Positions 2,537-16,406 of a stretch of 28,615 bases of DNA are shown here, one piece after another. A model generated the notes under the pieces. The model saw only the letters and a list, made by a program, of their open reading frames with translations, was not told where the DNA came from and did no database searches. Position 1 is the stretch's first letter. Each line of letters starts with the position of its first letter. The position numbers and the translations under genes were made by a program. The stretch comes from an uncultured archaeon (lineage in GTDB: Archaea > Asgardarchaeota > Thorarchaeia > Thorarchaeales > Thorarchaeaceae). Location of the stretch: contig CAZVZC010000025.1 of the NCBI GenBank assembly GCA_964631415.1, positions 1 to 28,615 on the forward strand, given 5' to 3'.

Positions 2537-3421
2537 TTATCCTACTTTGGTACCGCAATTGGGGCAGAACTTTGCACCTTGGAGGGCGGTGCCACAATTC
2601 GGGCAGAACTTCGCTCCTGCCGCTCCTGCTCCGGCTTGCCCGCTCTGCGGTCCACCTGAAACGGCTCCGCTTACAGCACCCATGAAACCCATGCCTGCAC
2701 CGAAGCCGGCACCAGGGCTCTTGCCGAGTGACTCAGCTGCACTCTTCATGGTTTCCATGCCTGCCAGATGAGAACCCTCAACCTTGCCGGTCTTGAGCCA
2801 GAAGAGTCTCTCACGGTACTGCTCGGTCGTGTCCATGCCTTCAAACTTGACGTCCACAAGCTCGAGTCCGAGTCGCTCGAAGTTCATGCGGACATTGGTC
2901 TTGACCTTGAGCGAGGTCTCATCGAGTTGCGTGAAGACCGTTTGCATATCGTAGTGAGCGAACTCGTCAATGATACGTTCGTTCATGAACGACCGCAGAT
3001 AGTCGTTGACCTTTGCAGTTGTGAATGCGTTCTGGTTACCGACGATCTCATTTGTGAAGATCTTCGGTTCCTTGATCTTGAACCAGAAGTTTCCGTGAAA
3101 CATCAGTGGAGCCAGGTCGCTCGTCTGTCCTCTGCCCCCGAACTTGCCTTGGAACTGGGAGCGTGAGACGAAGATGCAGGTTGCTTCAAAGACATCTCCC
3201 TTGATCTTCTTCTGCAACCAGCCGACCATCCCGGGCATACTGCTGGTAGTCAGCTTGTGGCGCCCTGCAATGAAAGTGTCGAGCGCTTTTCCGTCTCTGT
3301 AGAATATAGCAACCTGATTCTCCATGACAGTTAGCTGACTGCCCCACTTGACCCTGTTGTCGGGGAAGCGCCAGACGATATCGTCCGGGCTCGCGTTTGT
3401 CCACTCTATACTATCAGCCAT
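2537..3421 (-). CDS. SPFH (band 7) domain protein with C-terminal double zinc ribbon (YdjI-like)
   Basis: GSQLTVMENQVAIFYRDGKALDTFIAGRHKLTT SPFH N-terminus; Gly-rich GAGFGAGMGFMG linker; two FCPNCG repeats. Confidence 0.9.
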   Translation of the reverse strand: MADSIEWTNASPDDIVWRFPDNRVKWGSQLTVMENQVAIFYRDGKALDTFIAGRHKLTTSSMPGMVGWLQKKIKGDVFEATCIFVSRSQFQGKFGGRGQTSDLAPLMFHGNFWFKIKEPKIFTNEIVGNQNAFTTAKVNDYLRSFMNERIIDEFAHYDMQTVFTQLDETSLKVKTNVRMNFERLGLELVDVKFEGMDTTEQYRERLFWLKTGKVEGSHLAGMETMKSAAESLGKSPGAGFGAGMGFMGAVSGAVSGGPQSGQAGAGAAGAKFCPNCGTALQGAKFCPNCGTKVG

Positions 3422-3593: not shown

Positions 3594-4049
3594 TTGTCAG
3601 AAGACCAGCCGCAGTCCACGGGTCAGGGCCAACGTGGAAACGACAAAAGTGCGCCAGCCAAGAGACCGTTCAACCCCCTCGGATCCTACTTCTACATTAT
3701 CGGCCTGACCATGGCAGCGTACGCCATGTTCTACATGTTCGGATACGTGCTACTGATCATCATCATGCTCTACTTCCAGGTGAGCATCTTCAGAGAGGTT
3801 TCCCATATTCTCGCAAGCTTTGGCCAAGGCTTTCCGAGGAAGGCTGCCTATTTCAATGCCGGCCATTCTGCCGTGTTCTTTGTAATCTTGACGCTCAACG
3901 GCTACACGACTATTCAGTTCGGCCTTCCGCTCATCCTCCCAGAGATTGGCGGTCTGACACTGGCTTGCCCGCTGTTTATCATGATGGCTCTTCTGGGATG
4001 TAGGAACATCAGGTCGATGTACGTTCCGGCTCCAGCGGCACAGTCATGA
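3594..4049 (+). CDS. Hypothetical small membrane protein (3-4 TM)
   Basis: Polar N-terminus followed by hydrophobic aromatic-rich segments; TATA box upstream. Confidence 0.7.
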   Translation: MSEDQPQSTGQGQRGNDKSAPAKRPFNPLGSYFYIIGLTMAAYAMFYMFGYVLLIIIMLYFQVSIFREVSHILASFGQGFPRKAAYFNAGHSAVFFVILTLNGYTTIQFGLPLILPEIGGLTLACPLFIMMALLGCRNIRSMYVPAPAAQS

Positions 4050-4075
4050 CAGTTGCGTCGTCGTTCAAGCTCTGC

Positions 4076-4831
4076 TCATATCTTGAGGGTCATGAGGTCC
4101 CTGCCCATAGCCACGTCAATGCCCGTGTCCTGGCCAATAATCGATGCGACCCTGCTTTCACTGGACACCACCTCCGGCGAGAGATGGGATATTATGACCT
4201 TCTTGGGTCTAGTTTCCTCCACGATTCGGGCGAGCTCACTGGGTGCTGTGTGAACACCCTCGGGGTGTTTTCCATCAAGCCACATGCACTCGTGGATGAG
4301 AAGATCAGTACCCCTAATGAGTTCCATCACATCCTTGCTCGGAGCGGTGTCGGATGAGTACACGAACGAGTGGTCTTTGTGTTCCACTCTGACGGCTCGA
4401 CTATCCACCGTTCCATGCTTACTCTTGCAGCATCTGATGGTGAGCGTTCCAACTTGCACAGTGTCCAGTTGTTTCAGCGGTGTGACCTCTACTGGCACTC
4501 TACCCTTCAGGTATGGGTAGATCTTGTCATTGAACTCCGCGAACCACTCATCTACATTTGATGGCCCGAACAGGTGAAGGATCTTGTCGAACCCGGACAT
4601 CATGAGGGTCTGATATAGAGTCATGAAGTCCGAGCAGTGATCGACGTGGAAGTGACTTATGAGGACAGAATCAATCGACTTCACGTCGGCTCCAGTCTGG
4701 ACCAGCCTGTGAAGTACGCCGGATCCGACATCCAGAAGCATGAGCTTTCGATCCTGCTCTACCAAGATGCCTGACTGTACTCGTTCGGGGTCTGGGTATG
4801 AGGTGCCTGTGCCAAGCAGCGTAATCTTCAT
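4076..4831 (-). CDS. MBL-fold metallo-hydrolase, ribonuclease Z/BN-like
   Basis: LLGTG, DVGSG, SHFHVDH (HxHxDH), YSSDT, LLIHEC, H-T and SH motifs; the tRNA-binding arm looks short or absent. Confidence 0.85.
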   Translation of the reverse strand: MKITLLGTGTSYPDPERVQSGILVEQDRKLMLLDVGSGVLHRLVQTGADVKSIDSVLISHFHVDHCSDFMTLYQTLMMSGFDKILHLFGPSNVDEWFAEFNDKIYPYLKGRVPVEVTPLKQLDTVQVGTLTIRCCKSKHGTVDSRAVRVEHKDHSFVYSSDTAPSKDVMELIRGTDLLIHECMWLDGKHPEGVHTAPSELARIVEETRPKKVIISHLSPEVVSSESRVASIIGQDTGIDVAMGRDLMTLKI

Positions 4832-4967
4832 GGTTATCGCTTGGGCTATCGGGTCAGAGAGCTAATCAGTCTTCTCCCAGACATGCTCTGAAGATACGCA
4901 ACTAGGGGGCAGCGAGGTGTCTGGGTTTCTCAGTCACCGATGTCATCCTTTGCGGGATTTCATGAAG

Positions 4968-5360
4968 TCAGTAATTGACCCCCTGACCTGTTACTCTGGG
5001 TACAATCAGATAGTCCATTGTGTTAACAAAGAGCCTGAGGTCGCGTAGAATCCTCGCATGCTGAAGGTGTGGTTCTCTCAACTTTTGATGCAGGTCCCAG
5101 CATGTGATGTCCTTGAGCACCCTGAGCAGTGGTACTGAACCAACAGATACCGCGCCCTGTTGAACACTCCTCCATAGGTCATCGACAGACTCGACCAAGG
5201 TTCTGAGATGATCGAGCAGTAGCGCTCGATCTATCCCGGCATGCATGTCCTCATCGACAAGCGTCTGCATCTCGACCAGAGTCTTCCGAGCCTGCATACA
5301 GCAGTATGGGACACGATGAGCGTGCTCGCTTTTGGGTAAGTTCAGAATGCGCTGAGTCAC
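4968..5360 (-). CDS. Hypothetical helical protein
   Basis: 130-aa ORF filling the gap, amphipathic helices, TTAAATA TATA-like box at 5394-5400 on the minus strand. Confidence 0.6.
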   Translation of the reverse strand: MTQRILNLPKSEHAHRVPYCCMQARKTLVEMQTLVDEDMHAGIDRALLLDHLRTLVESVDDLWRSVQQGAVSVGSVPLLRVLKDITCWDLHQKLREPHLQHARILRDLRLFVNTMDYLIVPRVTGQGVNY

Positions 5361-5432
5361 GGCTGTCTGCCATAACTGTAGATTGCAGTGTGGTATTTAA
5401 CCCCGCCCCGCAATGCAGTCAACCAACGAGGG

Positions 5433-5933
5433 CTAGCCACGCTCTTTGATGGAGCGAGCTTGTTTGAGGCGGTAGACGAAGATGACTTGATTGTTATGCC
5501 AGCTTAGGTAGTGGGATGCGAAACCACTGATTTGGAAACCGCATGCCAAATAGAATGCCTGAGCATAGTCCATGAAATCGCCGGTGTCCACTCGAATGAT
5601 ATCCATGTCTGGGCGATCTTCTCCAATCCTCTTGATGTGGTCAATCATGAGTCTGCCAATTCCAAGCCTCAGATGATTGTGCTCTGTGATGATTGACTCG
5701 ATGATGAGCGCTCTCCAATCAAATCTGACTGCGGCGTACCCGACAGTTTCTGCCGTTGCCTCCTCAGAGGCGACGAGAATCCTCCCCAAGTCAGGTGACT
5801 CATGGAAGGCGCGTATTACTCTTCTCTCGTGGTCAAGGAAGTCACGGCCGAAGTTCTGTGCGGTTAGGATAATCTCTTCGACCTGCTTCAGGTTTCTTGG
5901 GGTATAGTCTCTCACCCGAATGCCTAATGTCAT
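5433..5933 (-). CDS. GNAT family N-acetyltransferase
   Basis: Motif A HLRLGIGRLMI, motif B AQAFYLACGF. Confidence 0.9.
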   Translation of the reverse strand: MTLGIRVRDYTPRNLKQVEEIILTAQNFGRDFLDHERRVIRAFHESPDLGRILVASEEATAETVGYAAVRFDWRALIIESIITEHNHLRLGIGRLMIDHIKRIGEDRPDMDIIRVDTGDFMDYAQAFYLACGFQISGFASHYLSWHNNQVIFVYRLKQARSIKERG

Positions 5934-9438: not shown

Positions 9439-9505
9439 TGTGAGCTGTTTCTGCACGAGATCTGTTCAGAGTTTCGGGAAATGTCAAGAGGGCCATCTTG
9501 GCACC

Positions 9506-9690
9506 ACTACCGTTCATTGTAAGTTGGACAGAGTTGGGCACAGGAGTCCTTGTCCTCCCAGAAACGGCACTGGGGTCGTACTCCTTGAGGCTGGAATGTG
9601 TCGAGTCAGCCTCAAAGAGATGTCTGGTTCGGGCTATTTAAGTCCCCACTCGAAAATGTCCAAGATTGTCCAACTTCTACGCAGCTATTG
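9506..9690. repeat. 185-nt intergenic structured element, copy 1 (candidate ncRNA or non-autonomous element)
   Basis: Ungapped alignment to 14420-14604 with 23 substitutions (162/185 identical), several compensatory within stems. Confidence 0.9.
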
Positions 9691-9763
9691 CATACCCTTA
9701 ATTGAGAAATGCGCCTGCCGGCCGCTCATTCGCACCTAAGCCAGATATCGAGTGGATTAGCGC

Positions 9764-13104: not shown

Positions 13105-13138
13105 GACTCCTGTCCTATCCCTTTCCTTTCTTTTTCTT
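13101..13138 (+). terminator. Hairpin plus pyrimidine tract between convergent genes
   Basis: ATAGGAC-TCCT-GTCCTAT stem followed by CCCTTTCCTTTCTTTTTC. Confidence 0.55.
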
Positions 13139-14282
13139 ATGTCTTGGAACGGGCAATTGCAGACGCGGTCGACTGTTCCTCACTGAGTCCAATCTTGGAA
13201 AGCAAGGGTGACTCGCGGAGTGCGGCCTTCATGTTCGGGCTAAGGATGGAATCAATAACAAGACCGACATCTATCTTGTTGTCAAGCGTAACAGGCGTGG
13301 AGTCGAGTGCGTCTTGGACTCCTGCTTTAACGATCCATGGTCCGAACGCCTGATTCGCGGCGCTGGGCGACTCGTGGAGCACGATGACATGTGATGTTTC
13401 CTTCTGCCTAGCGAGGTGTCCATAGACAGCGAACCTTGCGTAGTCCGCGTATATGGAAGTCTTAGGGTCGGTGGTTGGGTGCCGTGGGTCTTCAAGACTG
13501 TATCCCTGCGAGCGTACGCCTGCGTAGGCCTCGCTTCTCAAGTAGTCGACTCTGGGTTCGCCCGGGAGCGATAGCACTGTGAAGGAGTCACCATACAGCT
13601 TTCCGACCCAGATCTGGTGCAGTCCGGACTCGGGTTTCTCGACAAGCTGCATGAGAGTGTAGTTGATGGAAGCGTCGATGACGGCCTTGTAGGCACCTCT
13701 CATCGGAACAAACCGGCGACTGTGAAGTCTCCCCAGAAGACCGACAGCCATGATGCGCGCCACTTGGTCGAGCGTGTAGTCATACTCGAGGAGCTGACAA
13801 ATCCCTTCAGAGGCTGGGATGTCTTTCTGTGTGATTTTCTCGGCGACCTTGCTGACCTCGGGCTGTGAGAGTAGTTCGATAGACTCGACCATGACGTCGA
13901 GACCTGAAGGGAGCTGACCCGGCTGCGACCGGAGTTGACGGCCGGGAAGGCCCTCGACATGGACTTCCATGGCGACAGGGCTGACCGACAGAGCGATGGT
14001 CTGGAGAGTTTCAACAGCGTCGCTCGGATCCATGTCACGGCCATTGATTGGCATGACAAACCGGTAGAGTCCGCGTCTCATTGCGGCCACTGTTTCTCTG
14101 TCTAGCCCCTTCCACGACTCAGGGTGGTCGTGTATCGACAGATACTCTGATGGTTCAGTGGAGGCTAGGACGCCAGCTGTGAGAAAGGGATACCTAGCGG
14201 TATCAACAGAAACACCCGGAGGGCTGAATACTGTAAGAGTTCTCCTCGTGGGTGCCCGAGCCAGTCGGACCTGAGTAGTCAT
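13137..14282 (-). CDS. Divergent Nre-family (DUF650/DUF651) DNA repair protein
   Basis: SPPGVSV...YP, DHPESWKG, LQTIALSVSPV..E, VGLLG...RRFVP follow the Nre core pattern; the N-terminal Cys zinc finger and C-terminal PIP box are not visible. Confidence 0.7.
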   Translation of the reverse strand: MTTQVRLARAPTRRTLTVFSPPGVSVDTARYPFLTAGVLASTEPSEYLSIHDHPESWKGLDRETVAAMRRGLYRFVMPINGRDMDPSDAVETLQTIALSVSPVAMEVHVEGLPGRQLRSQPGQLPSGLDVMVESIELLSQPEVSKVAEKITQKDIPASEGICQLLEYDYTLDQVARIMAVGLLGRLHSRRFVPMRGAYKAVIDASINYTLMQLVEKPESGLHQIWVGKLYGDSFTVLSLPGEPRVDYLRSEAYAGVRSQGYSLEDPRHPTTDPKTSIYADYARFAVYGHLARQKETSHVIVLHESPSAANQAFGPWIVKAGVQDALDSTPVTLDNKIDVGLVIDSILSPNMKAALRESPLLSKIGLSEEQSTASAIARSKT

Positions 14283-14419: not shown

Positions 14420-14604
14420 ACTACCGTTCATTGTGAATTGGACAAAGTCAGACACGGGAGTCCTTGCCCTCCCAGAAACGGCACTGGGGTCGTACTCCTT
14501 GGGGCTGGAATGTGTCGAGTCAGCCCCAAAGAGATGTCCAGTTTGAGCTATTTAAGGCCCTACTCGAAAATGTCCAGGAATATCTGACTTCTATGCAGCT
14601 GTTG
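14420..14604. repeat. 185-nt intergenic structured element, copy 2
   Basis: Direct repeat of 9506-9690 at offset 4914, no indels. Confidence 0.9.
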
Positions 14605-14819
14605 AAGACCCATTTCGCATGACATATACAAGGAGGGCTGTTTCGAGTCTGAGTGTGACCAAAGGAGGTGGCAACAGGAGTGCTGATATCCTGACAGGCT
14701 GCTTCCCTGTGGGTTCCTCGCCAGTTGGTCTCGCTCTTTCTCTCAAGCAGAATACTGCAGCCTCAAGCTTTATGTCATGGCATGACGTGTGTGGCAAACA
14801 GGCGGGAGCGCCAGCAGTG

Positions 14820-16406
14820 ATGAACAGCAGCGAGAGAGTACCCTCTTCAGGCGGCCGAAGAGCAGTTCATCGCATTGTAGGTTTGCTACGACCATCTCGT
14901 GATACGTCCAGTCTTCTTGCTTTCTCAATCGTTGTGACTGTTGCCTCGTGCGTCCACTACTTGGCCACAATGCTGCAATGGACCCAACCCGGTCTCACCT
15001 TGGATGACTCGTGGATACACCTTCAATTCGCCCGTACTATCTACGAGGGTCATCCTTGGGAATACTCTCCGGGGATACCGTCAACAGGTTCCACCAGTCC
15101 CCTATGGTCGATCGTGCTTTCGTTTCTGTTTCTTTTCACGCGCGATCCAGTAGGGTTGGTCTGGGGCACGTACGTCGTGGCAACGATTCTTTACTGTACC
15201 TCCTCATGTTTGGTAGGCTTGATTGTACGGACCTACACTCATGAAACGACTGTAGGGTGTCTTGCAGTCCTGGGTTTTGTGTTGTTTCCACGCAACACTT
15301 GGCTGATGCTCTCCGGCATGGAAACGCCTCTGTTCATGTTCATGATTCTGCTTGCAGTGTACCTCCTTGATAAGCCCGAAATGAAGTTCGATCCAGCAAT
15401 AGGGCTGGTCGCAGGCTTGGCGTACTTATCGAGGCCGGAGGGAGTGCTGATACTGATCCTGTGTGTCCCGATGAGGTTTGTCATGCTCGGGCTCCGAAGA
15501 GATCTCAGTCTCCGGCGGCTGGCATCCTTCTTGTCGATTGGGGTCATAGCATTCCTTGTGGCGGCCCCCTGGATTGCCTATTGTCTGAGTGTGACTGGAC
15601 TTCCTTTTCCGGACACATTCTATGCGAAGGTCCACACACCGACTCAGTACGAGATAGACGTTTGGTCTTTCTGGTGGAACGTATGGTTGGTCGAGTTTCC
15701 ATTCATCACGATTGCGGCTGTTACTGGAGTCTATCTCGCAGCCAAGGGTAGACCATATACTTGGCTGCTGGCTATCTCGCTCTTCCTCTTCTACAGACTG
15801 AATGCCCCCTACATTGCGCTCATCAATAACGCCCGATATCTAGTTCCTGTATTCGACTTGCTCGTAATCATCTCGGTCCCCGCGATTGTTCTCACCCTGC
15901 GCAGAATCTTGCCTACACCTAAGCGGCCGCAGGCGAGAATCGATTTGAAGATAATGACACATGCTGTCGTCATTGCTCTGATAGTGATCCCACTGGTCCC
16001 TGGGTACTTGGCTCAAGCTCCTTTCTTTGGGAACGCTGTCAAGAACATAAACGAGCAACAAGTCCACATCGGCCTGTGGCTACGGGAAAACACTCCCGAG
16101 AATGCAGTCCTTGCGATTCACGACGCAGGGGCGCTTCGATTCTTTTCCGATCGCTCTGTTATTGACCTGGCAGGGTTGATCACGCCTGCCATCACTCACG
16201 GGAACATGACTGAAGTCGAGACCCTTGTCTATCTGCGAAACCAGGGCTGCAACTACTTCGTGTTCTTCGACGAGGTATTCTTCTACAGATTCTATTTGTT
16301 CGGAGCGTATGAGGTGATCTACACTGTTCACTTGGAGGACAATGTCATAAGTGGAAGGGATACTATGTCGGTATTCTTTGTGAACTGGACCAAGACCCCC
16401 TACTAG
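14820..16406 (+). CDS. GT-C fold multi-TM glycosyltransferase (PMT/arabinofuranosyltransferase-like)
   Basis: LDDSWIHLQFAR..YEG..G..STGSTSPLW loop, SGMETPL, RPEG, PDTFYAK, RYLVP, WLRENTP..A..DAGA...DLAGL. The frame opens at 14619, but the first 67 residues look spurious. Confidence 0.85.
   Translation: MNSSERVPSSGGRRAVHRIVGLLRPSRDTSSLLAFSIVVTVASCVHYLATMLQWTQPGLTLDDSWIHLQFARTIYEGHPWEYSPGIPSTGSTSPLWSIVLSFLFLFTRDPVGLVWGTYVVATILYCTSSCLVGLIVRTYTHETTVGCLAVLGFVLFPRNTWLMLSGMETPLFMFMILLAVYLLDKPEMKFDPAIGLVAGLAYLSRPEGVLILILCVPMRFVMLGLRRDLSLRRLASFLSIGVIAFLVAAPWIAYCLSVTGLPFPDTFYAKVHTPTQYEIDVWSFWWNVWLVEFPFITIAAVTGVYLAAKGRPYTWLLAISLFLFYRLNAPYIALINNARYLVPVFDLLVIISVPAIVLTLRRILPTPKRPQARIDLKIMTHAVVIALIVIPLVPGYLAQAPFFGNAVKNINEQQVHIGLWLRENTPENAVLAIHDAGALRFFSDRSVIDLAGLITPAITHGNMTEVETLVYLRNQGCNYFVFFDEVFFYRFYLFGAYEVIYTVHLEDNVISGRDTMSVFFVNWTKTPY

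Follow-up and report, generated by a model that had tools for sequence, protein, structure and literature searches.

The window analysed here, by which we mean the whole stretch of 28,615 nt of an uncultured archaeon of the Thorarchaeaceae (contig CAZVZC010000025.1), raises the question of why a non-coding sequence of 185 nt occurs at both 9506-9690 and 14420-14604, with substitutions that appear to preserve base pairs. An earlier note had taken this sequence for an independent, undescribed structured RNA. Our results point to another answer: the repeat is likely an IS607-family mini-transposon that has no genes and carries a stand-alone cassette for a TnpB guide RNA. Elements of this kind are known already, and it does not represent a new class of RNA.

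Copy number, element bounds and insertion site

The two copies align without gaps and differ by 23 substitutions, 21 of which are transitions, and both this alignment and the positions of the stems quoted in the earlier note were borne out. The claim that there are two copies failed, as an iterated nhmmer profile returned 44 matches at E<0.01 in the 2.16-Mb assembly, 39 of them at E<1e-7, comprising full copies, fragments and lone ends. The genome carries about 40 copies or fragments of the element. Matches were also found in 24 of 36 genomes of the same family (Thorarchaeota), and none of the 24 genomes searched outside the family matched. The local copies are mostly 85-95% identical and decaying, and no pair in this genome exceeds 95% identity.

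The bounds given earlier were also off, because the identity at 9506-9508 is chance identity of the flanks and the element extends 6 bp beyond 9690. Measured from GG core to GG core, copy 1 is a non-autonomous IS607 element of 187 bp at 9510-9696 and copy 2 lies at 14424-14610, both on the minus strand. The left junction of copy 1 (9694-9697, minus strand) reads GGG/T and consists of a host G on the TAM side, the GG crossover core and the first base of the element. Among 91 insertions, G, G, G and T were found at this junction in 88, 84, 81 and 78 cases, respectively, and a T follows the GG of the right junction in 83 of the 91. The minus-strand copies start with GGG/T and finish with AATGAACGG/T; the element inserts precisely at (A)GGG/T, and only the GG(T) core is common to both ends.

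Copy 1 is situated upstream of trpRS, and its insertion is shared by the sister genome G002 (L040, L108); the element is absent from the orthologous region in G001 and G003, where divergence is too high to read the junction. Copy 2 lies between nre (13137-14282, minus strand) and an orphan ORF (14619-16406, plus strand). Its empty site, AAACT-ACC-CATTTCG, is present in G002 (L118) and corresponds on the minus strand to a TGGG/T target; apart from the GG(T) core shared by the two ends, the insertion thus left no duplication. Removal in silico of one copy elsewhere in the genome restored a host reading frame, GPAPPS-GTHRCFF. The insertions occupy varied positions, some of them within genes.

Prokaryotic MITEs are short, gene-less, multicopy elements that are mobilised in trans. 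The mini-element shares their shortness, lack of genes and multicopy state and, presumably, their mobilisation in trans. It is not a classical MITE, as its ends are asymmetric and only GG(T) is shared without target-site duplication; unlike MITEs, it has no terminal inverted repeats and contains a conserved promoter-RNA cassette.

Two further features of the window were noted. The ORF adjoining copy 2 encodes 595 aa, falls into no Pfam family and is conserved in genomes of the same genus. At 2549-2618, within an ORF on the minus strand (2537-3421), there are two 31-nt repeats 39 bp apart, which we read as encoding repeated Cys-pair motifs resembling zinc ribbons.

Ends and parental elements

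In place of terminal inverted repeats, the element has subterminal repeats, with TTGGACA twice at the left end (LE) and TGTCCAA twice at the right end (RE). The left-end tandem repeats of ~10 bp (AGTTGGACA / CTTGGACA) lie at 9657-9675 on the minus strand in copy 1 and are putative binding sites of the serine recombinase TnpA. The right-end tandem repeats (TGTCCAACT twice) lie at 9522-9541 on the same strand, and the inner one also gives the GTGTC of the pseudoknot PK2 described below. The left-end motif and its spacing recur upstream of IS607 tnpA in C76, L102/L153 and L160, and the tnpA genes behind this end in the own genome (C76) and in G003 (L102) reached 174 and 120 bits with NF033518 (IS607), whose cut-off is 110. 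At the other side, the last ~65 nt of the element recur at tnpB 3' ends, both in the own genome (C2, C19, C32) and at about 30 loci of the family; this segment, matching about 30 tnpB right ends, corresponds to model positions ~123-189. In keeping with a TnpB scaffold, it is homologous to a right end that lies downstream of or overlaps tnpB, and it finishes at the element boundary.

Complete parents of 8.15 kb (G003, L153:470-8619, in which tnpB is broken) and 8.67 kb (G022, L160:428-9093) have the layout LE-tnpA-antisense cargo-tnpB-RE. Because its ends are homologous to those of these Thorarchaeota elements, the repeat is almost certainly an IS607 mini-element. The parental TnpB proteins of about 710-745 aa group with Cas12f1-like/TnpB clusters, and their three acidic RuvC motifs (VD, ED and AD) look intact when read from the sequence. 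Intermediate forms were found as well, namely L161, with the order LE-promoter-tnpB-RE, and a 645-bp element of the own genome (C6:40787-41431) that retains the two ends together with a stub of tnpA in decay.

The assembly of the own genome (85% complete) contains neither tnpA nor the cognate tnpB in intact form, with pieces of them at contig ends; together with the lack of copies above 95% identity, this indicates that the family may be inactive there. A GTDB-wide scan with tnpA returned G003 alone. At one contig end of the own genome (L031, C76:1-573, minus strand), an IS607 tnpA runs in frame into the TnpB C-terminal motif VNPAWTSQTC, and by its sequence this locus is an internal-deletion derivative of a parent. 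The cargo ORF, seen in the parents L160, L153 and L103 (G006), encodes 1,200-1,870 aa antisense to tnpA and tnpB and has no match in Pfam or Atlas. In an alignment of five cargo proteins we read a conserved E..G.xD..E-x-K pattern as resembling a PD-(D/E)xK nuclease site. Cargo homologues of ~1,580 aa run off the contig starts in the own genome (C1:3-4754 and C49:2-4735), consistent with parent-like elements that were not assembled. The own genome also holds a ~580-aa open frame (L033, C59:~3900-5800) with a TnpB zinc finger and a long, conserved-looking tail; no ends of the 187-bp element's family were found near it, and it is a separate, different TnpB element.

The earlier view, an independent plus-strand structured RNA of ribozyme or riboswitch type, has to be judged against these data. 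Rfam searches at E<=5 gave no match in the window, in three other copies or in a parental right end, so that the structure matches no Rfam family, and the covariation described below is real. A free-standing RNA does not explain why the ends are common to tnpA and tnpB elements, why the empty site is precise or why about 40 copies are dispersed at GGG/T. The IS607 tnpA-tnpB ends provide the link to a known IS family which the earlier note had itself named as refuting its proposal. The empty site and the homology of the ends already largely refute this reading, and we regard it as extremely improbable.

Promoter and predicted RNA fold

A TATA-like box, CTTAAATA, lies behind a purine-rich stretch at 9635-9642 on the minus strand and is a candidate archaeal promoter; the corresponding box of copy 2 is at 14549-14556 (minus strand). 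Its family consensus, YTTAWATA, is conserved next to a variable spacer. The usual archaeal spacing from TATA box to transcription start puts the start at the base of the first hairpin, and the RNA of copy 1 is accordingly predicted to begin near 9615. A scan for sigma-70 promoters and terminators returned nothing, as expected in an archaeon.

From this start we predict an RNA of ~105 nt with three helices and two pseudoknots, which would read into the flank like the omega RNA of TnpB. All parts in copy 1 lie on the minus strand. Hairpin HA (TTGAGGCT/AGCCTCAA) occupies 9585-9615, and its loop bases GACAC (9598-9602) form PK2. Helix HB (9543-9584; GGAGT 9580-84 with ACTCC 9543-47) encloses the core hairpin HC (CCCAG-TGCCGTTT-CTGGG, 9557-74), which is common to the tnpB 3' ends of the parents. 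The right-end terminus GAACGG (9510-9515) pairs with the HC loop CCGTTY as PK1 and is the predicted 3' end of the scaffold. In copy 2, the predicted scaffold of ~105 nt lies at 14424-14529 on the minus strand, with HA at 14499-14529, HC at 14471-14488 and the terminus at 14424-14429.

The host flank at 9490-9509 (minus strand) is predicted to serve copy 1 as its guide segment, the length being assumed, and would match the empty site; we infer this role by analogy with the architecture of IS607 omega RNAs (PMC11061315; 10.1101/2023.11.20.567912). In the own genome, two copies at C14:41174-41519 form a direct tandem in which one occupies the right-end GG of its neighbour; the predicted guide of the outer copy is accordingly element sequence. 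Regarding expression, a 220-nt contig of a relative in a 2017 wetland metatranscriptome spans 9510-9574, at a depth of 3.4 in unstranded data that may include DNA.

Covariation and strand

Across 40 copies, 90.1% of the cells of HA, HB, HC, PK1 and PK2 are paired, compared with 86.8% after shuffling and at most 46% when the strands are slid, and 42 cells changed on both sides as compared with 15.7 in shuffled alignments. None of 500 shuffles reached either the observed paired share or the two-sided count, a significance that is overstated because the copies are related by descent. In the same 40 copies, HA shows two-sided changes in six of eight pairs, with 79.5% of cells paired, and HB and HC are paired in 84% and 97% of cells, with two-sided changes in both. 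PK2 is paired in 98%, its terminal pair occurring as CG in 33, GC in 3, UA in 2 and UG in 2; copy 1 itself contains an A-C mismatch in PK2. When changes were counted on a tree, PK2 had 3 compensatory against 8 one-sided events, HC 5 against 13, and HA 4 against 82, the last partly reflecting alignment slippage. Covariation in these copies extends over the main hairpin with its loop pseudoknot, the enclosing helix and the inner stem, which supports the earlier proposal that selection acts on RNA structure; the fold is very likely selected as RNA.

The direction of that RNA is opposite to the one first proposed, as the G-U wobbles favour the minus strand. The sixth pair of PK1 is paired in 32/32 parents (as C-G, G-C, A-U, U-A or U-G) and in 81/81 mini-elements, and in 52 of these 81 it is U-G, whose equivalent on the plus strand would be A-C. 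Because this wobble exists on the minus strand only, it fixes the polarity. The wobble polarity of both pseudoknots and of the inner HC pairs speaks against a plus-strand RNA, which was rejected on these grounds; in HA and HB the two strands come out about even. Two details of the earlier description also changed. The 13-nt loop called invariant varies across the family, with conservation limited to GACAC at its core (minus strand), and the suggested pairing of TTCGGG or TTTGAG with CTCGAA straddles the TATA box and, as read from the alignment, occurs only in a close subfamily.

Folding of single sequences is unremarkable, with z-scores of -2.5 and -0.4 for full copies and, for the core of 109 nt, values from -0.5 to -1.5 whichever strand was folded, and the structural evidence therefore comes from the alignment. 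These weak z-scores, the decay of the local copies and an assembly without intact cognate tnpB would all suit a purely DNA-level parasite, an IS607 mini-element that has merely inherited its fold and makes no functional RNA today. We consider this unlikely, because HA, HB and PK2 are restricted to mini-elements yet covary across genera, the TATA box is conserved next to a variable spacer, and polar G-U pseudoknots are not expected from the binding of double-stranded DNA.

The long-range pair described in the earlier note joins left-end repeat 1 (9667-75) with right-end repeat 1 (9532-40). It covaries above the other registers, a point in favour of an independent RNA, with 27 two-sided cells, reached by 0/500 shuffles, against 13 in other registers, reached by 18/500; the other left-end/right-end registers showed no clear covariation. 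On the tree there are 5 events against 71 one-sided ones, and two of the five come from copy 2 alone. Some covariation stands, but the left repeat precedes the TATA box, and the pair is for this reason probably no RNA helix. In an excised circle the two repeats would lie more or less symmetrically on either side of GG, and we read them as DNA binding sites, a reading that leaves the excess covariation unexplained.

Candidate functions of the RNA

The mechanism that we favour begins with the serine recombinase TnpA of a parent, which would bind the ~10-bp subterminal repeats in trans, excise the element and integrate it as a circle at GG. The internal promoter would then produce the scaffold of ~105 nt followed by a host-derived guide and load the ~720-aa TnpB of the parent. 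The TnpB-RNA complex would cut the empty allele, recognised by the GGG TAM and the flank, and repair of the cut from the filled allele would retain or spread the copy. That the RNA acts as such a guide in trans, directing TnpB to the empty allele, seems to us reasonably probable, with clearly less assurance than its selection as RNA. As to guides aimed elsewhere, a search of 16 copies gave no genome match of GGG plus guide with two or fewer mismatches.

The RNA might instead serve as a decoy or regulator of TnpB, by titration or relief of autorepression, or the element might chiefly drive outward transcription of neighbouring genes, for example nre. In favour of these readings, 22 of 23 tnpB genes have a second copy of HC within their first codons, a place from which it cannot supply a guide derived from the flank, so that a binding-only role of this hairpin is plausible, and copy 2 is directed into the region upstream of nre. 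Against them stand the sixth PK1 pair and the exact AACGG terminus beside the flank, kept in 81/81 mini-elements as a guide scaffold needs, and the varied insertion positions, some within genes. Both possibilities taken together appear improbable, and the guide remains our preferred reading.

The hairpin in the first tnpB codons and a proposed origin of the mini-element

The second HC copy of the parental tnpB genes (loci L153-L182; e.g. L159:5812-5832) carries compensatory stem changes (A-T in 12, G-C in 10; also C-G and G-C). This 5' hairpin may act as a translational operator to which TnpB binds on the tnpB mRNA, and so mediate autoregulation. The parents also have a TATA box, about 22 nt and GAGG or GGAG before tnpB, with the spacing seen in the mini-element, which suggests that the promoter of the mini-element was derived from tnpB. 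Nothing at the right ends of the parents corresponds to model positions ~47-122, which comprise the TATA box, HA and the 5' strand of HB. Since HA, HB and PK2 are missing from these ends and from some mini-elements, they lie outside the native scaffold. One mini-element (L080 in G013) keeps the TATA box, HC and both ends and lacks HA and the PK2 loop, so the HA/PK2 module is dispensable in some lineages. A split scaffold, in which the tnpB 5' leader and the right end would pair over the intervening ORF, was tried on 23 parents and rejected, cognate combinations giving -11.7 and non-cognate ones -11.9 kcal/mol. The one Rfam match in a parent locus, to a snoRNA and at a distance from the ends, was put down to chance.

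To give rise to the mini-element, a parent may first have lost tnpA and the cargo and later the tnpB frame that separates the two hairpin copies, and HA, HB and PK2, including a strand complementary to GAGG, may have been gained. A more far-reaching and rather doubtful proposal is that a set of promoter-equipped guide cassettes, derived from the promoter and leader of tnpB, propagates itself genome-wide for an unusually large Asgard TnpB, and that its titration of the autorepression exerted through the tnpB hairpin amounts to a guide-counting feedback loop. The new hairpin would mask the old ribosome-binding GAGG and form a pseudoknot with the right end, and the duplicate hairpin would let TnpB repress its own translation unless the RNAs of mini-elements titrate the nuclease. 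We found no report of such a loop in the literature.

Comparison with known systems

The CboIStron element has a GG core, TGGG as target and TAM, a scaffold finishing in CGG, inverted end motifs of 6-7 bp and retention by TnpB (10.1101/2023.11.20.567912). The mini-element resembles it in the GG core at both ends, the (T)GGG target, the lack of target duplication, the short and inverted subterminal motifs and a scaffold finishing in CGG beside the flank. It differs in being only 187 bp long, without genes or a group I intron and with its own TATA promoter, and in its parent, which measures ~8 kb and encodes a TnpB of ~720 aa besides a cargo ORF of 1,200-1,870 aa. The reRNA of the IS607 TnpB of ISFba1, derived from RAGATH-18, has a scaffold of 187 nt and serves a TnpB of about 390 aa (PMC11061315). 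Both have a right-end scaffold with stem-loops and two pseudoknots and a G-rich TAM beside the left end (PMC11061315), whereas the scaffold of the mini-element is about 105 nt, of which about 65 are shared with the parents, and its TnpB about 720 aa. The empty Rfam searches at E<=5 mean that there was no RAGATH-18 match either. Omega RNAs that stand alone, are mobilised and act in trans have been described (PMC10691335). Unlike these, the element has IS607 serine-recombinase ends, resides in Asgard archaea with tens of copies per genome, and combines an apparently tnpB-derived promoter with an added 5' hairpin-pseudoknot module. Our literature search found no paper on this Thorarchaeota mini-element family.

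The hairpin in the first codons of tnpB leads to a testable proposal for how such nucleases keep their own level in check. If the guide role is true, the family would provide a compact natural scaffold of ~105 nt, with a core of ~65 nt and a predicted GGG TAM, serving an uncharacterised archaeal IS607 TnpB of ~720 aa, and gene-less IS607 derivatives would protect their own sites by using TnpB in trans.
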